This document shows, piece after piece, positions 22,920-61,491 of a DNA stretch of 64,000 nt. How positions within the stretch are numbered: position 1 is the stretch's first letter; each line of letters opens with the position of its first letter. Both the position numbers and the translations under genes were made by a program. Where the stretch lies: contig MU004182.1 of the NCBI GenBank assembly GCA_010093605.1, positions 1,645,032-1,709,031 of the forward strand. Direction: 5' to 3'. Under the pieces are notes generated by a model. The model was not told where the DNA came from, made no database searches, and was given only the letters and a program-made list of their open reading frames with translations. Origin of the DNA: Lophium mytilinum. Its lineage: Eukaryota.

Positions 22920-24041
22920 ATGCCTCGATCCGGATCGCAGTCACAGTCTAGAGGTTCTGAGAATGAGGAGCATTTCATCTGGGTGTCAGGAGTAAGGTTG
23001 ATTACCTCCACAAACTCGGCTTTACTGACTGATGTTCTAGCTTCCACCCAATTGGACATGGCAGCACTTGAAAGACTATGTCCGCGGCTCGATCGTTAAC
23101 CAGCCTAGGTGGACCGAAGTCATTGAAGCACGACCCGGACTGCGTGAAGGTTACTTCAGAGTGGTCGGAAGAAAAGATGCCGACCTAGCCTACAGCAAGT
23201 CACTAGTAGCTTTCAAACCCGTTTCTTCAGCTAACAATCAATATAGATCGATTTGCAGACCCAGGCGTCAATGCCAACATAATGCTGGTACACGAGTGGG
23301 AACTCTCTCGAGATGGTGCCCAGCCGAAGCTGGTCCGTTGCAATTGCTCATCCCGGCACCGTGGCATAGAGCCAGGCTCGCATAGCCCCCGACGAAGCGG
23401 CATCGACCTGAACGTCATTACTCGGACCATGATGAGCACAACGGCCATGAATATTCCCGTTACTGCTGCCCCCATGGCAGTCTCATACGGATACCCCGCA
23501 GCGCATGCTGGATACTACGCGACGTATACCACGCAAACAGCCCAGTACGGCTATGCGGCTCCCACTGCGCCAGTCGCTGCAGTACCACGACGCGCTCTCA
23601 TGGCCCAGACGCCAGCATACTCGATCACATCCAACGGTCTCCCTGTCAACATCAGCAATGGGGTAGTCCGCACCGAATCTCGAGGCATCTTCATCACTGG
23701 CTTGAGCTATTCTTGTTCCGAAGCGGAGTTGCGAGCGCTTTTGGAGAGCTACGGCTCGATGCCCTTAAGCTGTGTCCTGTCGCGGGACCAGACAACTGGC
23801 AAGTCCAAAGGCTGTGCGACGGCGCAGTTCGCGAGCGCAGCAGAGGCTCAAGTTGCGGTCAAGAAACTAGACAGAGTCCAGCACATGGGCAAGACTCTTG
23901 CGGTACGGCACGACAAGGACGCGACGTCAGTGGGCCAGCCGCAGGGGCCCGTAATCGCCAATGGATCGACGGGGTACAGAGTAAGTGCAGCATGGCGCCA
24001 TCCAACAGGCAGAGCGCGGCACTGACGGAACACAGTCGTAG
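22920..24041 (+). CDS. RRM-domain RNA-binding protein (degenerate N-terminal RRM-like segment plus C-terminal RRM), 3 introns including a probable GC-AG intron
   Basis: IWVSG|LPPNWTWQHLKDYVR, then GIFITGLSYS (RNP2) and KSKGCATAQF (RNP1). Introns 22992-23040, 23195-23246 (GC donor) and 23981-24035 keep the frame. Confidence 0.8.
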
Positions 24042-27000
24042 ATGGGCGGCGGCACTGGCGGCATCTGGCATGGGGGGCTTTGTTAGCGAGGGAGCGTGGA
24101 GACGCGTGGAATGGGATTGACGTCTGCAGGTGTCCGAGGGCGCGCGCTGGCAGTCCCTTGGTCGTGCCAGGTACTCCCGCAGCCGCCAGAGATTAGCGGC
24201 AGGCTCTTGCAGACAGTTCGCCGCCCGGCATGCCGGATCCAGCTGTTCGGGATGCCGTTCTCGAGAAGATGAAGTATTTCGTTTGGTCTACAATAATGTC
24301 CTCGCCGTGTTTCGAATTTCTATCTCTGTGCCACTTTACTCCGGGCAAAAGCTGCCTTGTGACGCGAGAAATAAGGGCCAACGCGGTCGATGGCCATGAT
24401 GGTGTCCAGAAACGTGCTTTTGCGACAAGGGTCTTTCCCTGCAGAACATCTGCTTTTGCTCCACCCTCGATGCAGCTCAATCGCGGCGGTCCAACGGCTG
24501 CTCGCGCCTGTGGACAAGACTCGTCGGGAAGGCCAGCCTCGCAGGCGCCTCTACACCACCAACCCGAAAAGGCTTCTCGCGGAAGCATCCCATTGACTGG
24601 CCTCCTTTACTCCCAAGCAGGCTGCTCCAATAGACAGTATGCCATCACGCTCTTTTGCGGGCTGTTTCAGCCATCTTCTCCCAGCCAGCCGGTCCGCCCG
24701 CTTGCTTTCCCTACGTCGCTTGGCCCTGTTGACAGCATCGTTGGATGATGTTAAGCCGCACTGTCGTCAGGCTGCCCAGGCCTGTGTGCCCGCCGACTCC
24801 CCCGCAGCGATCATTGCAGAGTACCGGCCGCGGGGAGACGAGACTCGACGAATTCTCCTCAGGCACACAGCACGGGTAGTACGTGCATAACAGCAACATC
24901 AGTCGCAGTCTGGCGTCGCCGCCTTGTCCCCACGTATCCGCATCTACTAGAGCCCTCGAGACAGCGCTACCGGCACATTTCCCCCTTCCGAACAGCTTCC
25001 TATTGGACGCTGCAACTGTCACTTCTTTCGGGCGACAGTGAGCGGGACCCGATGCACTGGTCGCTGCTAGTACGCTATTGGAGGGCTACTAACGTTTCTG
25101 CTCCCTCTCAGTGGCCGTCAGAGATGACTCGCAGCCGCCACCAGATCAAACGTTCGGACATCCTCGGTGCATCTACACTGGGATCACCCCGCAATTCAAT
25201 CTAAGATCTGAGAGGCCAGCTATACGAGCGTGGCTGCGCCAAAGCCTCCTTACTGGACCCATGCACCGCATCCCGTCTCGGCATGCCGGCCTATCAGAAC
25301 CCGAAATATCTCACCACATCGACTTGTTGCCGTTTCCCCATCATATACTCCAAGCTTCCACTCGAGGGGCCGGACCCTGCCCACGGCGACCCCCATCTCC
25401 TGCAGCTAACACGCGCTTTCTGCAGATCGCTAGCAGAGTACACACCCACGCGCCCCTTCCAGAAGGTGGCTTCATGGCCACGATGAATTGGCTCTTTTCC
25501 GGACTGACAGGTCGCTCAGCGGATCACGGAAGATTCAGGGTGAGCAAATAGATCGGAACTCCGAGATCCACCGTATCAGCCATACTACTCTAAGTAACCG
25601 GCCGGAGGCGCCCAGGTCAACGCCAATTTCTCTGCATTATGTCTCCGGCACACGCTACTTGCGCTTACATGCTCAAGCCCTTGCTGGAGCACTCAGACGG
25701 AACGGAGTCTCCTCTATCCGTTCACCGCTGACATCCCGCGTTGGTCTCTGCGGTACTTCCACCGTCCAATCACCATGTGCTTGCTGTTAAGCTCGTGTTG
25801 GACAGCTTCGAAAGAGCATTCCCCGCGTTCTTCCCCCTGCTGGATCTGGAAGCAGAAGCAATACTTATTTGTATGACGCCACTATACATCGGGGCAAAAG
25901 CTGGCTATCTAAGCTGTGCTGCCTCGCTGTCAAACCACACCCAGTCCTGTGGGGAGCATATGAACAACAAGCGAGTTCAAGGTCGTGTAACTTGCCACGA
26001 ACCCCACTCCGTGCCGATACCACCAGTGTGCCGAAGCCTTTGCCGATGTGTGAAGGACCATTGGCCTACTGTGCCGTGTCTCTTTTGTACCCTATGTTTC
26101 AGCCGGCCGAGAGTCGCCAGACTCTAAAAGCGTAGACCCGGCGTAGCGTCACTGCGTCGAATGTTGTAAGCAACGGTCCGTGCATGGTACGGAAGCTTCG
26201 CTAAGGCCAAAACTCTCTATCGAATATCCTGCTCTACTTTGTCGTAACCTTTTGCTACTGGGTACTCGTAGTACGTTGAGGGTCTAGCAAAGACGACGTT
26301 TCGCCTCGGCATCAAGACCACTGAAACCATCTGGCCTCGGCACAATCTCATATTATAACAGGGAGAGTACTCAAGAGAACCTTTCAAGAAGCCCTCAGAA
26401 CCTGCCAAGTCTCTTTCTACTCCTGGCCGCCGCCAAATGTACATATGTCTTCCATGCTCAAAGACCAACCAAAGCTCCTTCTTTTTCTCAACGTCACCAC
26501 TCGGGACCCCTTTTCCTATTCTAGCCTCTTCATCCCTTTGTTTGCTATCTCAAAGCCCTCTTCTCGGATTTTACGCCCATCTCGTCATCATCAGCTGTCA
26601 GATCTCTACGCTCCCGACGCGACCGTCAGCCAACTCTTTGCCTCAGCCAGCCTCCCCGCCCGCCACGCGGGACACGAAGTCAACGACATGCACCTCGGGC
26701 AGCGGGACAGCGGGGAATCGGTTCCACCGCCAAACACTGGACGTTCGTCTACATAGCCCGCTATGCTGCACGCCATGGGCGGCTCAAGAACGCACGTCTG
26801 GACGCGTTAGGGCATCCTTTCCACGGATCTGCAAGAGGGGAATGCACGAGATTTTACGCACGCGATGAGACGGATAGGGGTGCCTGCAAGGTCGATCCCC
26901 TGCGACGATGGTCCCATTCCTGCGTCGATGAGCTGGCTCTTGCTCGCAGAGCTGCAAATTTGGTTCGGTGCGTGGACAGGAAGCTACCGCATCGAAAACT

Positions 27001-29536
27001 GCTTTGGGAGCGGGGCTTAGAGCTGACGAAGAACGAGGTTTAGCGATTTTGGCTGGGGAGGTTGATCTGGAGCTGATGCCGAATCGATCGCAGGATCAAC
27101 ACGATCGTTTCTGCATGCCGCCTTGCACCTGGCCAGTAGCCGTTTACTCGGGCCATTGTTGGGAAGCGAGCGGGCTGGCGGCTGCTGCCCAGCCAGCGGT
27201 TCGAACGTTGCCGACGGCAGCGCTCTCCTCCTCGAGCTTGACGCGTCGGCATCTAGCCCTGAGCACTCACCAGTAACGCTCGAGCATCAGTGCCAATCGT
27301 ACTACTCTGGGAGAGATATTAGGACTCGTCACAGCCCAATGACGGACAGCATCCACCCCAACTCTCGCCCTGCCTTGTTTTGGTAACTCTCGTCATGCGC
27401 GCGCTGCTCGCCCTTGCCCTACCCTGCTATCGGCATTCCCTTGTCTTATTTTTGGCATCGGATTTCCCACGAATCTGATGGAGATCAGCCATGAACAATA
27501 CGGCACAGTCGCCAGCTTCTCTGTGCTCAGTCGCGCGCGAAAAGGATGTGCCAATGCGCCGCCGGCTTACCTGGCCACGCCGCACGCACGTACGCCAGCC
27601 GCTGGATCCATCCTTCATCCTTGCGACGAGGCACAGGTCGCACAGAGATAGCACGACGTCGGCTGCCGGCAGCCTTCAAGGGTGAGTGTTGGGGTAAAAC
27701 CCGGTAGGGTGGAAGGTTTGCTAGGGAGGGCCTGGAAATTGGCACGCGGGGGGCCGGGGTTGGTCAGCTCTCCTAATCTGACAACCATCGGCAGGTAGGG
27801 AATAGGTTTAAGAGAGGGCAAGCGTGGGATTGGTGTGGAGGGGTGGTAGGCTATCTGCTTCTGGTGGTTTGCTATTGGCAACTGAATCGGGTTCTCCGGA
27901 CGCGAGGAGACTCGGGATGTATGTAGGGGATGCACAGGGCTCAGAACGGCAGGCCTCCCTGCGCGCGCCTTCAAATATGTGAGTCGAATCTCTTATCCTA
28001 CTCTGAGCTTGTCATTGTGTTTCGCTCTAACGGCGCCTTACACCCCATCTTCATCACCTGCGATCTGATCAGTTGGACGTTCCACAATCGTCAGATTTTT
28101 CCCTATTGAAGCGTGTGAGCTTTATGCCTTACTGTCGACCTACGTCGTACTTGCGTTTAAGCTTCGCCGTTACCCCTCCCTAGGTATGTGTCTATCCACT
28201 AGCTCCCGCATTCGGACCGTCTTCTTTCGGACCGTCTTCTGCGCCCGCCTCACACCGCATTACTAGATGAGCACGTGATTGCCTCGAGACGGGGTACTCG
28301 ACGTCACTGTCAGTACATCCATTCTATATAATTTCTGGCGGAAGCGTCGCGTAGACGACGGTCCAGTGAGGAATTCAAAAATCTCTCTGTCCGGAGATAT
28401 GCATCTGTAAATCCCAGATTCGCGCGCGGAGCAGTTATACCAAACGTAGCGATGTGCCGCTTATGCGCTTCCTAAACATCTTGCGAATTGGAGTCAAGCC
28501 GTGTGGAGGCAGCATGCATGCTGGTGAGTGTCAGGGTAGAATGAACGCAGGTGGTCGTTGGTATTCGGATGTGGTCTTGAGTAGCCACCCGCTATAACAC
28601 CTGCGAACACACCACTTCTAATCTACGGAGCAAGGTGGTAACTTGAGTTTTGCAAGATGTTTGGAAGTGACATTGTAGTCGTGGCTTCCTTATGCCAGAA
28701 TGTAAGCCGATGTTAGTATTCGTGCCAGTGACTTCAGAAGCAGTGGACTGTAGCGAGCATGCGTCCGAGCTCAATACACGTAACACCCGGAAGGCGATTT
28801 CCCTTTTCGTCACCGTGAGCTGCTGTAAAACCTTCCTGCTCATTTGCTCCCCGAATGTCCCGTCTAGAGTTTTCCACTCCAGTTTGACCATGCGCCCCTA
28901 CCCCGGTGTGGTTATCTCGGCAAAATGACTTGGCGAAACAATATGAGTATCCTTTCTCTGGCTCCGCTTTATATCAAATTGCTATTTAAGGGTCTCCGCG
29001 TTTTCTTCCGCCGCTATTGAAAACATACCAACTCATGTCAGATAGTGCTGAGCTAGAAAGCGATCTGTCATTTCTCGCAGTTCGTGGCTTTACAGCTGCC
29101 TCAATTTGCGCCACCTAAATGTATGCCATAGTAGCGTCGGCATATGTTCAACGCTCTCGTAACCTCTATGGTCAATCGTTTAGGCACGGCCTCAATCCAA
29201 TTTGCCTCTGAACTCTGATACCTGGCCAAAAATAGTAAAGATGCTTATGACGAACATTGCACCAGCGCTGGCACTCTCGAGAGTATAGATACAAACAGGA
29301 TGAGTGTGATAGAAGCTATCATGGTTTCAGATGCCTAGAGAAGGTTTTTGCGACAGCTCCACCCTTACGTGTCGTTGAAACAACCTTCCATGGCTCGCTT
29401 CATTCGCTTCACATCTTAGGCAGGCGCGGCCAGGGTGACATGACCTCACTTCTATCCTCCACCCATCAACCTCTAAACGCACATCATCCCTTAGATCCCT
29501 CCAGAAAAACACTACAAGTCTCATAAATGTCGTATC

Positions 29537-31061
29537 ATGGCGAAGACGGCGACCCTTCCGAAAAAACCTCCCAATGAAGCCTCGCACATCATCGATCTGA
29601 CCGGCGATGAGACAGTTGACTTGACGGGGGACACGGACTTGGAGAGCAGTTCTGACGAGGGCCCCGAGACTCCTCGGCCAGCGGAGATTGCATCGGGTAC
29701 AGACTCTGAAAGCTCTTCAGATGAGGAAGATCAAGATACTTCGGGCGATTTTCGAGCCGTCATCATTCCCAACGGCAAGCGAAAAGCGACACGCACTACC
29801 TCCGAACCGGGACCCAAGAGACCTGCAACCCATACCAAAGTAGATGCAAAAGAGAAAATACCTGAGCTTAAGCAGACTAAGCTTTCGAGCTTCTTCGTGC
29901 GCAAGGTGCAATGCCTGGCCTGCTACGAAGACTTAATTCCCTCTGCTTTTGCGACCAAGATTACCGCCGAGTGCAATCATGCGTCGCGTATCTGCGCTGA
30001 GTGCGTCCAGGGATCCTTATCTGCTCAACTCTCTGACACAAATACCCGTATCACCTGTCCCAATGCGGACTGCCATCTGCAGTTGACGCATGAGGACATA
30101 CGAACACATGGGACTTACGAGACCTTCGTCCGGTATGCCTCCACGCTACAAAACGCTCCCATCTATCTCATAGCGTACTGACCCACTCTACTAGGTACGA
30201 CACAGCCATTAGTCGCGAAGCAATTCGTGCAATGCCTGGCTTCACTCCATGTCCCAGCGCCAAATGTCCCGGTGGCCACTTCCACGAGACTCCCGAGGCT
30301 GGAAACATTTTTACATGCGAGGTCTGCAAAACAAAATACTGCGTCGTGTGCAACGTGCCTTTTCACACAGGTCAAACCTGCCGAGAGTACGTCGAGGTCC
30401 TGAATACCGCTCCTCAACGGAGAGAAGAAGAGGAGAAGTCGAAAGCGTACATTGAGAGGAGTACGAAGAAGTGCCCAGGAGAGAATTGCGGCTGGAACAT
30501 TGAGAAGAGCGAGGGTTGCGATCATATGACATGTGAGTCCGTTTCTATGGTGGAGCATCAACGTTAGGGTATACTGACTGTCGTGCAGGTCGGAGGTGCG
30601 GGCACGAGTTTTGCTGGGTATGTTTTGCCCCTTGGGCTCCGATCGTCGCGCGAGGAGGAAGCAACGCTCTTCATAACCCTCACTGCAAATACTACGCCAC
30701 ACACGACCCTGAGAACGACGATAGCGAAACATACGACAGTGAGCTAGATGATCTACACGATCGTATGCATCAGGATTTCAGCGATGAATATAACAGCGAG
30801 GACGAGTTGCCAGCCATCGGCGAAAGCTCTCGGACTCAGGAAGATGAAGCAGCTACCGAAGCTCCTCCACCTGCTATGCAACCGCATCATACGCGGGTTA
30901 TACGGGGTAATGATGAGGCGAATGTGGCCTCTCCGCCTCAAGTTCAGCCGATCCATATGCAGCTTCACCGAGAATTGGAGCTTACCAACACCCCACCTGG
31001 TAGTCCGCCCTTACATGTGCGCACTTTGCGAGAGGAATCTCGCGTCAGAGTACAGGCTTGA
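29537..31061 (+). CDS. RBR (RING1-IBR-RING2) E3 ubiquitin ligase, Ariadne-like, copy 1
   Basis: RING1 CLAC..CNH..CAEC..CPNADC; IBR CPSAKC..CEVC..CVVC..H..C; RING2 CPGENC..IEKSEGCDHMT|C.RCGHEFCWVC. Introns about 30133-30194 and 30533-30588. Confidence 0.9.
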
Positions 31062-32145
31062 GGGGCCTATTACGAGACCAGGTGTAATTTTTTCGGCGTG
31101 ATGGGTGTGAAAAAAGGATATGTCCTATCTGTGAAAAGTGGTTTGTCCTGAGATTTTACAAATCTGCATCTTATACCCGAGGAATTTCCATCGTCTTGTA
31201 CCTTCCTTTTTCTACCTATCTTAGCGAAATGGCATTGTGTCTTTGTTTGTTCTGCTGCAATTGATCTGCGTGTGAAGTTTAGTGACTAAATGGCTGCCAA
31301 ATCTTCCGTAGCACTCTACATGAGCCATGTCATCGCTACGTAGAAGACGAGCAAGCGTGTAAGAGGTCCAGCAACTACTCCATCCTCTACTCTACGAGCC
31401 CTTTACCCTAAGATCACCGTAGAATTAGTTAACACCTAAAGCCATCCGTATAGCTTGATTCTGCACGCTGCTGACATTCTAGACTCAGGAAAAATCTCGT
31501 AGACTCACGCAAACTGGCCAGACTTTTGCCACGTAGCCCTTCCGCATTTCTTTCGTTTCCATCAGTTTCTAGGCAATTCTCTTTGCTGCGAGCCCGTGGC
31601 TACCGACTTTCATTTTGTGGTTGACCAACAAAAAGGGGCATGGGGAAAAGGGGCGGGGCTCGTTACTCGCCCAACCGCGCTGACACCCCCAAAGATTCAT
31701 GGTTCAGAGGGTATGTGAGTCACAACCATATTCGCGACCGGACTACGTGGCAGACTAATGCTTGGCTCTCGATTTCGTATAAGAGGCTGCCCTCCCCCTC
31801 GACTTTCTGCGCAGCCTTCGGGCTTGCTAACCTGCTAATCATCTAGATGCTAATACCTCCAGCTGATCTATCTGCCATATATCTACTATATAACATATAT
31901 CTACATCATCTAGAGATCATCTACTTACCATTTCTTTTGTTATTTCAGCCTATTCGGCTTGCTTCCATCTACTTGCTATCTCTCCTCGCGTTCGCGTGTT
32001 TTTCCGATATACGTGTCATCTATTTTTGCCATCTGCTTTTGCCATTTCTTTATGCCGTCTCCTTTCCTATTTTCGTTTTTATCTACTTTGCCACCTACTT
32101 GCCATCTATTTACCATCTTTACCATCTTTTCTCACTTACCCCCGT

Positions 32146-35100
32146 GGGGCGGAGGCGGCATCGTCCACCTGGATGGCCGTCACGGATGGGGGCGTTGGCT
32201 GGGGCCCCCATCTTTACCCTCATTTCTTTGCCATTTACAACCTCCATTTACTACGTGTCATCTACTATCAATTTCCCATACAAATGCCACCTATCTCATC
32301 TTTAACTATATATTTCCATTTAATGCCATTTACATCTGCTATTTACCGGTGCCATATATGCCATTTACCCCCGCTGGGCGGAGGCGGCACCATCCACTTG
32401 GATGGCCGTCACGGATGGGGTGCGTTGTTGGGGCCCCCATCGTAACCCATTTTCATTTTTTCTTAGTGTGTGCGGGGGATTGTGGGATTTCGGTTAGGTT
32501 GATGAGGACGTGGCTAGAGTGAGGTCTTGGAGTGGATGGAGTTCCAGTCTTAGCATAGCAAATATCAAGCCCATTTCATTCTCAACGCTTATCTTTGTGC
32601 TCATTAATGTGATCTCCGCTATTAGTGTACCTTCTTGTGGTGCTTTGAGGATGCCACATCTCCAGCAAATGCGTCTGCTCGTCACTGCCCATACTTTGCC
32701 CAAGGACCTCAACAACACCTTTGAACACATCTTCGAAACACGCAGATTTGTCATCTTTCCCTCCATGGGACCCTCAAAGGCTCTTCTTTTGACGGCGACT
32801 GCATAAGTTTGAACACGCGAGACCCGTCCCACCAGGACTCCTTCCCACCATAAATTCCGCCAGCCTTCCTGACACTATTGAAGGCCATGTGTTCAGTGCC
32901 GACATATCCCGTGGTTAACCGCTCCAGCAAGAATCTGGTGGAATGTTCTCCTTCCACGCGCGGCCTGACGGGCTCGTTATTCACCTTCACTCGTTCAATA
33001 GCGGGCACAGGCCCGGGCGCCCGCCCAAATGGACCAGCCATATAAAGTCTGCCTGCCCCGACGCCTTTCCTTCCTCCAACAACCTACAGTTTTTTCTCCT
33101 ACACAACCACATCACCACATCACCACCCTTCCTTCGTCGCGATCTGAGCAGAACCGGCTCCTCGACCACCTCGGTTCCACTAGGTCTTGCCTCCTCTTTC
33201 CGCCCACCACACAAGCCTGCTGTGTTATCCACCACCGCCTCGTTTCTGCGCCCTACTTGGGGCGCGACCCTGTACTCCTCCACCCGTCACAGAAGCCTCT
33301 TCGACTCCCACCTCCTCTTCCTATCTCTTACATTGCTCGTTCCCGGACTCGGTGGCGGCATTGCACAACCCATTAATTGGGCAATGCCACGGGATGTGGA
33401 GGCTGGGCCCATCTCTTCGACGGCTTCTCGAAGCTTCCATATTGTGGACATCCGTTCGCACCCGATTCACCGGCCTAAGATATCATGTCGGAGATATCGG
33501 GTCTCCACAAAGAACACGCACTCGACACACACTCGCCTTCGTAAGACCACCACCACACTCGCTTCGACTAATTCTTCTTCGGCGTCGTCTCCTCCAACAA
33601 ATCTCTTCGCCTACTCGCCTATAATCTTCCGGGCCTGGTGGGGGGCACCTTACACCCATTGATCGGGGGTGCCCAAGCAAGGAGAGGTTGGCGGCCTTGC
33701 TACCTACTTCGCCTCTTCGGAGTGCAGGTAGGATGCCATTTCGAAGGCATAGATCTTTTCAATTCTCTTCCACCGTTGGAGGGTTCATCCCATCGTGCCC
33801 ACCGCTTCCACCGCTTCCACTACCAAATTGCTCCGACGCGCCACCGCTACCACCTCCTCGCTCTTCGCGACTATCTGCCATACCATTACCGCTGGACCTG
33901 GTGGGGGGCACCTCATACCCATTGATTGGGGGTGCCCAAGCAAGGAGAGGTTGGCGGCCTTGCTACTTACCTCGCACTCCTTGGAGTGCAGGTAGGCGCC
34001 ATGTCGGAGGCGTTTCTTTTCGACTTCATTCACCCGCTAGAGAAGTTGACCTACCTATTCTCCGTTCTTACTTACATAGACTTCATCGCCGAACCAGTTT
34101 TGCAATACTGCTAGAGGGCTTAGCCCAGCAGACATACTTACACCAGCCCGTCTTTGTTCGTCGCCACCACCACCACCACTACCACCACCACCTCCTCCTC
34201 CTCCTCTCTTCTTCTACGATAGAGCAAGACTTCCGGACTCGGTGGGAGCATCCCATTACACCCATAAATTGGGGGATGCTGGGAAGGAGAGGTTGGCGGC
34301 CTTCCCACCTACCTTGCCGACAGGTAGAGCGCCATTTCAGAGTTGCATATACAGTTCGTTTCCAACAGAGTTTTTCTTCCCATCGATAATCCAAGGCCTC
34401 CGAATCGGGTGGAGGCAGTCCTTACCCGTTGATAGGGGACTGCCAGTAATGGGAGGCTGGGCCCATCTCATCGCCAGCCCAAGGTATCATGTCGAAGATG
34501 CCAGGCCTCCGGACCGTGGACCTGGTGGAGGCAGTTCGTCCCCGTCAGTGGGAATTGCCAGTGATGGGAGGTTGGGCCCGTCTCATCGCCGGCCCAAGGT
34601 ATCATATCGAAAGTACTAGGCCTCTGGACCGTGGACCCGGTGGGAGGCTTCTGCTACCCATTAATTGGGGAAGCCTGAGACGGGGAGGTTGCCCCGATCT
34701 CACCTACCTTCACGACTGGTAGGGCGCCATTTCGGAGGTGCGACAGAGCCCTTGCTTTTCTCGACAGCCTAAGATGCCATTTCGGAGACATCAGGCCTCC
34801 GAACCGCTGACCCGGTGGGAGGCTTCTGATACCCATCAATCGGGGGAGCCTGAGACGGGGAGGTTGGGCCCCGATCTCACCTACCTTCACGACTGGTAGT
34901 GCGCCATTTCGGAGGCCCGACGGAATTGTTCTGTTTATCGACGGCCCAACATGTCATTTCGGAAACATCAGGCTTCCACCCGTGGATGGCTTTCTGTAAT
35001 ACCCGCGAAACACCTCATTTCGGAGATGGTGACGCTAATCTGGTGGAGGCATTCCGCACCCATTAATAGGGGGATGCCAGAGATGGGAGGCTGGGCCCGT

Positions 35101-35740
35101 TTCATCTGTCTTCCTGACTGGTAAATCGCCATCTCAAAGGCGTCGCATAGACTCGTTTCCATTTAATGGCCTAAAATGTCATATCAGAGACATCAGGCTT
35201 TCGTACCATGGACCCGTATCAACCTCCGTCGCTCGCTCAATCTGGTGGAGGTATCTCAGACCCGTTGATAGGGAGATACCAGGGATGGGAGGTTGGGCCC
35301 ATCTCATCGACGGCCCCCGAGGCCTCTGTACCTGGACCTGGAACGTGGAAATCGTGTTCGCACGCCTAATCTGGTGGAGGTGTCTCGAACCCGTTAATAG
35401 GGAGATACCACGAGTGGGAGGTTGGGCCCATCTCATCGCCGGCCCCTAGGCCTCCGGATCCGGACTGTGAAAATCGTGGCCTAATCTGGTGGAGGTATCC
35501 CAAGCCCGGCAATAGGAAGATACCATGAGATGGGAGGGCTGGGCCCATCTCATCGACGGCCCCCGAGGCTTCCGGACTTGGACCTGGAAATCGCGTTCGC
35601 ACGCCCAATCTGGTGGAGGTATTCCGAACCCATTAATGAAGGGGGATACCAAAGATGGGAGGCTGGGCCCATCTCCGGACCGTAGACTCTGTCTGCACAC
35701 GACACCGGCCCAAGGTATCATATCGGAGATACCAGGCCTC
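32146..35740 (+). repeat. Array of ~15 divergent structured repeat units plus ~14 copies of a second hairpin motif; probably non-coding RNA elements
   Basis: Unit cores start at about 32146, 32375, 33351, 33637, 33900, 34241, 34408, 34524, 34639, 34814, 35042, 35244, 35373, 35488 and 35612. Stem sequences differ between copies but stay complementary. Confidence 0.85.
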
Positions 35741-36478
35741 CAAGAGGGATATGGGCGGAAGGCAAGGACAATGGGTATGCGGCCACTGGGGTCGGTGGAG
35801 GTGGACATGGTCGGGAGGTTTTTCATCCTACGGGGTTTTCCTCCATATTTATTTTACAGAGAGTTTTACAAATTTTCTCTCGCACAATTTTCATTTACGC
35901 CTGGGGTTCGTCGGCAGGGCGGTAGCTTCCAGAAGAAAGAGGGGGCATTGGTTTTCTAGCCTTGTGCTGGGGATCGAAGTCTCTTCGGGGTTGGGATTGT
36001 TGAGCGGTGGACGAGATTGAGCTGCATTCGGGTAAACGGGTTTGTTCGTAACTGTAGTTAGCTTGTATTGCTATGTTCAAGTCTCTGTTTTAATCAAAGC
36101 ACGGTGGTGAGGTGATATGGAGTTCCTATTCTGCTGCTGATAACGAGATGTACTGTGAACGCATGGTGGACTGGGCTGGGTAGCAGAGTCCTAGGAACAG
36201 AGATCTGAAGAACCAATGGTGAAGCACATTGAGGTATTGGAGGAAAGCAAGGAAATCAGGACTGGACTAAGGCTCTAGGATTTGTCGGATTGAGGAAAAG
36301 AAATAATTTGGTGAGAAGCAAGGATGTGTTGTGTAGAAACCAGAGTATGCACTACGCAAGAATGCGAAGACGCATTGCGCTTCGAGTGAAGGTATTTACA
36401 GGCTCTCTTCATGTCCGATGACCCAGCGTGGAAACTGAGTCGACCCTGTTTAACGTCCTTTTCTAGGCTAATGTTGTA

Positions 36479-37633
36479 CTAGCTTGAATACCAAGCTAGC
36501 GTTTCGTTAAGGAGTTCTTCGTTGTAGCCGTCGATGTATTCGTCGTATTCGTCGGGTTCCACGGCTGCATGTGGAGGCTCAGGATCGTGCAACGGTCGAT
36601 AGTGCTTACAAGATTGGTCATGGAAATGGTTGCCATTCTGAATGATGGGGGTCCAGCTCGTCCGACATAGCCAGCAGAACTGGTGGCCGCATCGAGTGCC
36701 TGAATTGATAGAGTGTTAGATCAGTAAGTAGCATCTTATCTGTAAGAGACGGCTTACATGTCATGTGGTCGCAACCATTGTTCTTCTGGATCCTCCAACC
36801 ACAGCCTTTCCCCGGACACTCTTTTGAGATTTCCCGGATAAGGTTGACCGAGTCCTGCTCTTGTTTCTTGAGTTGCGCAGCTTCAAGCTCTGCAGCCTTT
36901 GCGGCGGCTTCTGCGGCCTCTTCCTCCAGTCGCTTCTTCTCCGTCGCTTCAGCCTCTCTAGCAGCCTTTTCGGCAAGCATTTCTGCCACTGCAGCAGCTT
37001 TCTCGGCACTTTTTGCCTGCCTCTCCAATTTTGCCTTCTTCTTGATGGCAAACTGCTCGCAAGTCAAGTTTCTGTGCCAGGGGGCGTTGCAAACAACGCA
37101 GTACTTCGCTCTGCACGATTTGCACGTGAAGATTGGCTCTGCTACTCCCGCTTCATGGAAGTGTCCACCTCGGCATCTAGCCTTTGGGCATGGAATGAAC
37201 GATTCCATTGAACGTACGGCTTGGAAGGTTACCAAATCATCATACCTGCTGCAATTAGCATTCAACAGCGTATATTATGGGGCTGGTAATCTTACCGGGA
37301 GAATGTTTCCTTGGTACTGTGTGCCTTTACATCGGTGTGACTGAGGACCTCCGAACAGTCACTATGCGGGCAAAAAATCTTGGTGATATTGTCGTCGACT
37401 TGAGAGGTAATGGTTTGCTCAATGCAGCCGCGGCAGATCGTTTGATTGTGCTCGCAGCTCGCTGTGGTTTTGGTGGGGAATGCATCGGCAGCCTTTTCGT
37501 CGAGACATACCTCGCACTCAATGAGAGCAGAAGTGGAGACTCCCGTGTAGATACCCGTAGACTGCGTCGGGATTTTGAGATTTCTCTCGGCAAGTGAGGC
37601 CTCTTCTGCCTTTCTCTTCCTCGAGCCATCCAT
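36479..37633 (-). CDS. RBR E3 ubiquitin ligase, Ariadne-like, copy 2 (start could extend to 37711)
   Basis: CEVC..CEH..CRGC..CPHSDC; CPKARC..CKSC..CVVC..H..C; CPGKGC..IQKNNGCDHMT|CTRCGHQFCWLC; Ala/Glu/Lys-rich coiled insert before RING2. Confidence 0.9.
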
Positions 37634-39411: not shown

Positions 39412-40841
39412 ATGGCACCCAAAGCTCGCGGCAAGGCCACCGCCAAAGCAGCCCAACTGAAAGCATCAGAGGCCACCCCTGAGGAACCACAGGCTGAGAC
39501 GAGGTACAACTTGCGCAAACGCGAGCGCCCCGACCCAGGACACGAGGCCCAAGCAGGGGAAGGTTCCACAGCAAAGAAGAAGAAACCCGCTCCACCTAAG
39601 AAAGCTCGAGGGCAGAAAGCCCCGAGACCAACCGCAGCAACATCCAAGAAGCCCGCGACAACCCCTGAAGCTTCGACGAAAGCAAAGAGTGGCAAGACGG
39701 AGGGAAAGTCTACACACACACCTACTCCGACGAAGTCACAAAGCAAGGGAAATGACTGCAGCCCACAAAGCGGACGCGAGATCGAAGGGGTCTTGGCCGA
39801 CGCAACTAACAAGGCAGGATCGACCTCACAGATTCAACCCAAACAGAAGATTCCAGGTATAGCCACAAGCTTCAGGGCATTTGATGCATCTCTGGCCGCG
39901 CGCGGAACAAAGTCTTCCCTTGCTGTAGTTCTCAAAGTTGCGGCATCCAATATCAACGCCGGCCGCCACGATTCTGTAGTTTTTCATGCGGACGGAACCC
40001 CGCAGAGCCCTTCAGTTAGGAAGCATTCTTGCACGAGCTGTTACGACACGAAGGCCCAGGAAGACTTTCCATATCTACGCCCGGGGCTCTCGCATAATCA
40101 TCCGATAGAGACGTGCCGCGAATGCCTCCAAGCGTGGATCGCCACTAGGGTCTCTGAGAAGATTGTGCAGATTGGTTGCCCAGAGTGCGATGAGCATTTG
40201 TCACGCGGCGTGGTTGAAGCTGTTGCTGAGAAACGCGTCTTTGATCAGTAGGCATTTCAATATCCTCTATATACGACATATAGCTAACGCGGTAGCGCAG
40301 GCTGTGCGAGCAAGAGAGCCTCAACTTCATTCGGACAATGGAAGGCTTCATAAGCTGCCCAAATGCCGACTGCTCGGGCGGTCATCAGCATCCACATCCC
40401 GAAGAAGAACCTATCTTTACCTGCGAGGTCTGCAATGCTAAATACTGCACCCTTTGCAAGGTGCCGTACCACGATGGACTTACGTGTGCAGAGTACAAGC
40501 AGCGAGGGGGCCTCACAGAGGAGCAGAAGGGCCAAGAGGATGCAACGGCCAAGTTCAAAGAGAAGCGCACGAAGAAGTGTCCGGATTGCCGTAGCCCCAT
40601 TCAAAAGGACAGGGGCTGCGACCACATGACATGTAAGAAGCAACGGCAGCGACGGCGATGGATGCAAGAACATGCTGACACAACGCTGTAGGCAGCTACT
40701 GCAGGAAACAGTTCTGCTGGGATTGTCTAGCGGACTGGAACTCAATCATCCGGAATGACAACAGCCGTCACAACCCGACCTGCAGATGGTATCGTGGAAA
40801 CCTGCCCTCTGCACCCCAAGTATTATCAGACACGGAGTCGG

Positions 40842-40872
<31 letters not shown>

Positions 40873-61399: not shown

Positions 61400-61491
61400 G
61401 CGAGCGTAGTCTAGTGGTTATGATGTCTGCTTTACAGGTCACGTGTCCTTTGAAGCGCAGAAGGTCGGGAGTTCGATCCTCCCCGCTCGTA
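61400..61491 (+). tRNA. tRNA-Val (anticodon UAC) with a 19-nt intron (61437-61455)
   Basis: Acceptor GCGAGCG/CGCTCGT; anticodon stem TCTGC/GCAGA with TTTACA; T arm GGGAG-TTCGATC-CTCCC; T run terminator immediately downstream. Confidence 0.93.

Follow-up and report, generated by a model that had tools for sequence, protein, structure and literature searches.

The stretch of DNA analysed here, a window of 64,000 nucleotides from Lophium mytilinum (assembly GCA_010093605.1, contig MU004182.1, positions 1,645,032 to 1,709,031 of the forward strand; contig C2 of a genome of 43.4 Mb in 49 contigs), carries a tandem array of 13 core modules in the gap between paralogous RBR/IBR E3-ligase genes. The array occupies positions 33351..35674 of the + strand, as delineated by sequence, pairing and covariation, and its modules start at 33351, 33637, 33900, 34241, 34408, 34524, 34639, 34814, 35042, 35244, 35373, 35488 and 35612. 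As judged from the sequence, the shapes of the thirteen folded modules appear to have been kept while their letters changed, in what is probably a long non-coding RNA (lncRNA) of a little-studied fungus. Each module opens with GGYGG, followed by helix Pa, helix Pb and then either helix Pc or helix Pd. Helix Pa comprises a GG..CC stem with a 5′ bulge, a CCC/GGG tip and a loop of 6-9 nucleotides (nt) that mostly reads RTYRATN, and helix Pb has 7-9 base pairs (bp) and a G-rich loop of 6-12 nt, mostly AGGYTGGG. Behind Pb stands either helix Pc, with a further hairpin, hairpin B, directly after it, or helix Pd, which bears hairpin B or closes without it; some modules are able to close a three-way junction. 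Hairpin B, which an earlier note on this DNA had singled out at 33471..35740, is an optional accessory of this larger repeated module, and the coordinates of that note cover the module only partly. It is absent after three of the 13 modules and doubled after three others, so that a module carries it 0, 1 or 2 times. The first modules are separated by purine-poor spacers with CCA and CCT runs (33740-33900 and 34010-34230), and in the 3′ half of the array the spacers shrink to a few bases.

The strongest signal in the array came from helix Pa. When the 13 modules were taken together with two upstream variants, all 90 of 90 stem cells were paired, 83 of them as Watson-Crick pairs, seven as G-U and none as A-C. 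Covariation was assessed against a tree-aware null in which substitutions inferred on the tree are relocated randomly among the stem columns, in the manner of R-scape (PMC11234323), and the expectation under this null was 61.4 paired cells (p<0.0005). At least 12 distinct versions of the Pa stem occur, transversions included, with zero mismatch. The ratio of seven G-U to no A-C cells indicates an RNA of the + strand, as does the excess of G-U over A-C when all array helices are pooled (21 versus 9, p 0.043), and the array is probably a selected RNA structure. The alternative of a protein repeat was also considered: the spacing from one module start to the next is a multiple of 3 in two of the 12 steps, so that ten steps break the reading frame, which argues that the array is not a protein repeat. 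An ATG open reading frame (ORF) of 218 codons starting at 33733 overlaps the first third of the array in a frame without a Pfam match, and neither of the two array ORFs scanned matched Pfam.

Hairpin B consists of an 8-nt loop, present in nine variants of ATNTCRRA, closed by a C-G pair. The earlier note had counted about 14 such loops, and all 14 were recovered on the + strand, with the six stems that it named (GATATC/GATATC, ATGCC/GGCAT and so on) reading exactly as described. Between 33471 and 35740 the motif ATNTCRRA matched 15 times, against a mean of 0.49 and a maximum of 4 in 500 dinucleotide shuffles, and eight matches had an unbroken stem of at least four pairs, compared with 0.012 in dinucleotide shuffles; the 15th match, at 35253, is stemless and lies inside another helix. 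The first copy (33479..33498), of the GGCC type, sits on a helix Pd at 33472-33503. The copies with loops at 33738, 34001 and 34334 (33732..34347) each lie directly 3′ of a helix Pc, CTACY/GGTAG. Within 34476..35199, five copies (loops at 34489, 34604, 34779, 34956 and 35181) are joined to helix Pd through a YAA/A internal loop, three (34729, 34906 and 35131) follow helix Pc, and the copy at 35017 has a weak stem and stands in neither context. The last copy, with its loop at 35720, is carried by a helix Pd at 35707..35738, where the predicted fold is as drawn (z -3.1). Overall, helix Pc lies directly 5′ of six copies, and seven are attached to helix Pd through the YAA/A internal loop. The GGCC..GGCC extension that the earlier note described as frequent is found in seven of the 14 copies, in some of them as AGCC, GGCT or GGTC, and is missing from the remainder.

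Hairpin B is confined to the array and is not a dispersed motif. Genome-wide counts, made with sequence patterns, gave seven matches for its GGCC form in the 43-Mb genome, all of them in the array (control 0), and 29 for a relaxed pattern (control 10), with ten in the array and 19 outside. By hand count, the stem cells of the relaxed-pattern matches were Watson-Crick in 33 of 76 cases outside the array, which is chance level, versus 35 of 40 inside. A single perfect copy was found elsewhere, at C5:799469, and it has no module around it. The pattern for helix Pa matched seven times in the array and six times in the rest of the genome (control 6).

The proposal that hairpin B is a protein-recognition or tertiary-contact element depended on the covariation of its stems and on the conservation of its loop. 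With the register fixed at six pairs, pairing extends to 82% of the 84 cells and both-side changes occur in five of the six pairs, a level reached by none of 500 column shuffles; registers slid out of place gave 21-57%. The stems also covary beyond the tree-aware null, with 62 of 70 cells paired versus 55.3 expected (p 0.0075; G-statistic p 0.002), and they still do so once the closing pair is left out (p 0.024; G-statistic p 0.0055). The stem is nevertheless not free to vary, as had been supposed, since its arms are held to RYRYC/GRYRY: in the 5′ arm the four positions that vary read R, Y, R and Y in 13, 14, 13 and 14 of the 14 copies, and those of the 3′ arm follow the same alternation in 13, 14, 13 and 13. 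The expectation that the loop is more conserved than its surroundings held over all 14 copies, where the loop has a mean pairwise identity of 0.81, compared with 0.43 and 0.39 for the two stem arms and 0.27-0.48 for the flanking sequence, in a comparison that is partly circular because copies were picked by their loop. It did not hold in the seven copies of the GGCC type, whose near flanks (0.85 and 0.81) are as conserved as the loop. When sites were picked by context, hairpin B was found after six of six GGTAR and seven of 12 GCCYAA motifs, the remaining five GCCYAA belonging to other parts of the module.

The suggestion of an H-type pseudoknot between the loop of hairpin B and the sequence downstream was rejected, since their complementarity is at chance level. 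The longest complement of the loop in its own downstream 20 nt averaged 3.14 nt, compared with 3.13 in the downstream sequence of other copies (p 0.54) and 3.06 in shuffled sequence (p 0.39), and a 6-nt Watson-Crick match occurs in the copy at 34779 only. This result bears on the view that the array is an architecture made of RNA alone, in which the loops and the YAA/A internal loops serve as tertiary contacts and the modules pack together or the RNAs multimerise. The module order and the short linkers are fixed, as such an architecture would have them, and hairpin B and helix Pa have one 5′ arm and two 3′ arm sequences in common, which makes strand swapping possible; the chance-level complementarity speaks against it, and a hairpin that occurs 0-2 times per module, being absent after three modules and doubled after three, is more easily understood as an optional binding site than as a strut that the fold requires. 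We consider this architecture unlikely. Of the original proposal, the covarying stem with its constant loop, in an RNA of the + strand, is supported; the free stem and the pseudoknot are not. A constant loop on a variable stem is the pattern of hairpins that are read by proteins, U1 SLII being an example (PMC4114683), and it leads to the reading of hairpin B as a site of protein docking, so that protein recognition seems the likeliest role for it.

About 200 nt past the last hairpin B lies a terminal G-U-rich hairpin (35939..35986, + strand) of ~19 bp with a 5-nt loop, identified by pattern, pairing and predicted fold. Allowing up to three mismatches, it was found at 11 places in the genome (control 0), the others being C17 271099, 271400, 272290, 285738, 619374 and 654064; C19 382094 and 385709; C10 1456163; and C18 694977. 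Across the 11 loci, 195 of 198 cells are paired, 68 as G-U and none as A-C; many of these cells are inherited, yet G-U is present in 13 of the 18 columns. The copy in the window folds on the + strand only (-21.7 versus -7.0 kcal/mol). These figures, together with those of helix Pa, bear on the possibility that the array belongs to the DNA level or is neutral, being a decaying tandem repeat of short palindromes, in which template switching or gene conversion keeps the arms matched, or a set of DNA sites read by a protein. The RYRY arms of hairpin B are nearly self-complementary, its double changes are almost all transition pairs, some copies fold equally well on the - strand, and a + strand transcript of the locus is itself inferred, all of which would suit such a repeat. 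Matching of arms predicts no bias of G-U over A-C, however, and this bias is 7:0 in helix Pa and 68:0 in the terminal hairpin; nor would it readily give the at least 12 Pa stem versions, with transversions and no mismatch. An origin at the DNA level or by neutral change is improbable in our judgement.

The loci that carry the terminal hairpin are of two kinds. Nine of them look non-coding and have a TATA-like box about 300-2900 nt upstream (six of the nine by pattern and three by eye; the ORF scan covered the window carrier), and the two on C19 are, by eye, the apparent 3′ untranslated regions (UTRs) of paralogous coding genes. The bodies of the carriers can be aligned only within subsets, and paralogous carriers have promoter-like upstream sequence in common. 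Two C17 carriers have five modules of similar outline with a covarying helix of their own, which resemble the module of the window and may be no closer to it than that. GCCARG, which we take to be a PacC-type site, occurs near several TATA boxes of the C17, C10 and C18 carriers and is absent upstream of the array in the window. The two paralogous units C17:618700-619500 and 653100-654150 share their promoter region and contain repeated modules of two kinds; the first of them is covered by an RNA contig of high depth. A small gene at C17:616346-616998, with Zn2Cys6-like and CCCH-like fingers by eye, stands 1.7 kb upstream of this expressed, apparently non-coding unit.

The same 3′ element follows unrelated bodies at 11 loci, including two apparent 3′ UTRs of coding paralogues, and this could also be the mark of a selfish or catalytic RNA. 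Such an RNA would be either an array of uncatalogued ribozymes or a viroid-like relic or non-autonomous retroposon that uses the terminal hairpin as a handle for reverse transcriptase; variant HDV ribozymes exist in fungi (PMC5640933). Several observations speak against this idea, which is quite unlikely. No poly(A) tail or terminal repeat was visible by eye after the hairpin, and the promoter-like sequence common to paralogues indicates duplication as DNA. The locus had no meaningful match in Rfam; no hammerhead or hairpin-ribozyme core was found on either strand, and an HDV-like motif was found nowhere on the + strand and as a single fragment on the - strand. It is very unlikely that the transcript is a precursor of small RNAs, cut by Dicer or another nuclease so that the terminal hairpin yields a conserved small RNA: this hairpin has ~19 bp and both of its arms are conserved across the 11 loci, as a precursor would require, but the stems of hairpin B, Pa and Pb are about 5-10 bp, and their conserved letters sit in the loops. 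Stems of 5-10 bp are too short for Dicer.

The RNA evidence came from one contig-level run (X1), whose contigs show joints of the GT-AG type and for which no differences from the window genes were listed. No RNA data set was listed for the locus, and no contig of this run covers 32952-35607; neither blank is informative on expression. A contig lying on 35927-35970 continues into the letters of the carrier at C17:619k, exactly over 30 nt on each side, and RNA is therefore present for at least one of the loci that carry the terminal hairpin; the word depth of ~700 implied for this contig is rough and a poor measure of expression. Other contigs touch the module at 32.36-32.43 kb and originate either from this locus or from its counterpart on C12.

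We give a probability of about one half to the reading that the array is a polymerase II lncRNA which displays repeated protein-binding loops and is NORAD-like in design. The gene would be ~3 kb long and would extend on the + strand from about 33.1 to 36.1 kb, both ends being approximate and presumed. It would have grown by tandem duplication of a folded module, and selection would have preserved the helices along with a few of the loop sequences, the letters of the stems drifting meanwhile through G-U intermediates. The resulting RNA would display the 8-nt loop of hairpin B 14 times, along with 13 Pa and 13 Pb loops, and would most likely act as a multivalent platform, a decoy or scaffold on which one or several RNA-binding proteins dock by reading loop sequence on a stem that tolerates sequence change. 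The terminal hairpin could serve all its carriers as a handle through which the RNA is stabilised, processed or localised. A broader proposal, which we regard as possible and doubtful, is that this fungal lineage has non-coding RNA genes of polymerase II that form a family and are built from interchangeable folded modules, with the terminal hairpin as a handle shared by lncRNAs and some mRNA 3′ UTRs; the array would be its extreme member, and would titrate or organise the regulators of those mRNAs or form a particle made of RNA only.

A number of results count against the lncRNA reading. All the covariation was drawn from paralogous copies within one genome. The register of Pa was chosen for each copy by the best Watson-Crick match, a choice that is strand-neutral yet favours pairing, and several of the Pb registers in the pooled count of G-U and A-C cells were alternative ones. 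For hairpin B the strand signal is weak, with five G-U versus three A-C cells, and in six of its 14 copies the unbroken stem is shorter than four pairs (34334, 1; 34604, 0; 34779, 1; 34906, 3; 34956, 0; 35017, 2); when one mismatch is allowed, 34334, 34604, 34779, 34906 and 34956 pair at four of five positions and 35017, the weakest, at three of five. The folding energy of the array in 150-nt windows of the + strand is unremarkable (z -2.2 to +0.8), with no clear strand preference. The module models R1 and R3 did not detect the modules of C17, so that the link of the family rests on the terminal hairpin and the gene layout. The transcription of the array and its protein partner are the parts that we infer.

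The surroundings of the array are fungal in kind, with an AA9 gene and a sugar transporter gene among those of the window, and the transcripts are spliced; two proteins encoded in the window have 99-100% identity to proteins named from Lophium mytilinum. A cluster of three RBR/IBR E3-ligase paralogues (29903-30779, 36482-37633 and 40027-40867) surrounds the array: the coordinates of the left neighbour, on the + strand, give the matched part only, and the right neighbour, on the - strand, is spliced in the RNA contigs. A TATA-like box, TATAAA, was read by eye at 33041..33046 (+ strand) and is followed by a C/T-rich leader; it may act as the promoter, and the first ATG after it is at 33384. Two variant modules, at 32148-32212 and 32377-32441, belong to a separate unit upstream of the array (32148..32441, + strand) and have four clear relatives on contig C12, which model R3 missed. 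This upstream unit (31600-32600) has an intron-like stretch (GTATGT at 31711, GCTAAC at 31826), and its two modules stand in pyrimidine-rich spacers; C12:327780-328570, on the - strand, is a paralogue of the unit with four such modules. Farther upstream, at about 22920-28640, lies a gene for an RRM protein conserved in Dothideomycetes, with an orthologue of 86% identity in Mytilinidion resinicola; its RNA contig continues without a break from 24036 to 28179, a tail of ~4 kb. By proximity, this protein is a possible candidate for the partner of the array. The window also contains a 92-nt tRNA gene at 61400-61491, probably with an intron.

Searches for relatives were directed at known families and at other genomes. 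With Rfam 15 at the gathering score, the only match in the window was the tRNA at 61400, and nothing meaningful was found for the locus and its paralogues at E values up to 5 or 3. The scans outside the genome were made by exact match in collections with few or no fungal genomes; among these, the pattern of hairpin B had no match in the prokaryotic genome and viral collections, that of Pb none in the viral collection, and those of the terminal hairpin none in the metagenome and viral collections. The Pa pattern had a single match, in a bacterial genome where neither the helix nor the hairpin that should follow is present, and this was taken as chance. Other candidates were rejected at the locus itself. 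A U-rich triple-helix element at 35810-35845 was dismissed on its predicted fold, which differs (z -1.6), and T-loop and Helitron-end readings were rejected by eye against the consensus. No signature of repeat-induced point mutation was found at the locus, and change driven by this process was likewise rejected.

Structure backed by covariation has seldom been demonstrated for fungal lncRNAs, and in the open-access literature no account was found of a fungal lncRNA with a dozen covarying modules. Comparative data are supplied by the array itself: each helix exists in 13-15 natural versions, from which the secondary structure and the positions of the loops can be read. If the terminal hairpin is indeed carried by both non-coding and apparently coding transcripts, it would define a small RNA regulon.

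Comparison with known systems places the array among structured RNAs of several kinds. The fungal elements catalogued in PMC5640933 and PMC8216456 are, like the array, covarying non-coding elements of filamentous ascomycetes; most of those listed are short elements of the UTR, intron, snoRNA or HDV kind, and the 17 elements of PMC8216456 are described as predominantly single copy. The array matches no fungal motif in the passages of the two papers that were compared, and the word 'tandem' appears in neither main text. In the three-way junction P5/P6/P6.1 of Pezizomycotina telomerase RNA (PMC3592445) two hairpins likewise stand side by side, and the loop of the second is U/G-rich. P6.1, however, has 4 bp and a 5-nt NUNGN loop, whereas Pb has 7-9 bp and a loop of 6-12 nt in which YTGGG can be fitted to NUNGN only if the stem is 2 bp long; the + strand of the window contains neither the 9-nt TTAGGG-repeat template nor any of its 8-nt parts, and there are 13 repeats of the module, so that neither telomerase RNA nor P6.1 was retained as a candidate. 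A parallel in recognition is offered by U1 SLII and U2 SLIV, bound by U1A and U2B'', which have in common with hairpin B a conserved loop starting with AU and a C-G closing pair. PMC4114683 attributes the conservation of these loops to protein recognition and describes RRM proteins as reading U1 SLII by its fixed-letter loop and C-G closing pair on a tolerant stem. The U1 and U2 loops are 10-11 nt long and begin AUUGCA, whereas that of hairpin B has 8 nt and another sequence, ATNTCRRA; binding of U1A and U2B'' drops sharply on an 8-nt loop (PMC4114683), and a stem-loop of the U1A/U2B'' type, for which at least 10 nt beginning AUUGCA are required, was rejected. In overall design a counterpart is the mammalian NORAD, which according to PMC4947167 is a multi-kilobase RNA of at least 12 diverged tandem units, with combinations of motifs and stem-loops whose stems are kept by transitions. 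NORAD differs in having single-stranded Pumilio elements and a short hairpin with a variable loop, whereas it is the loops that are conserved in the Lophium array, and also in being conserved across mammals, expressed and provided with a demonstrated partner (PMC4947167), whereas the array is known from its sequence. Homology to NORAD or to any other such RNA is not claimed; the array consists of diverged units in tandem that conserve motifs and structure, as is characteristic of NORAD-like repeat-module lncRNAs, and by analogy of kind it may function as one of them.

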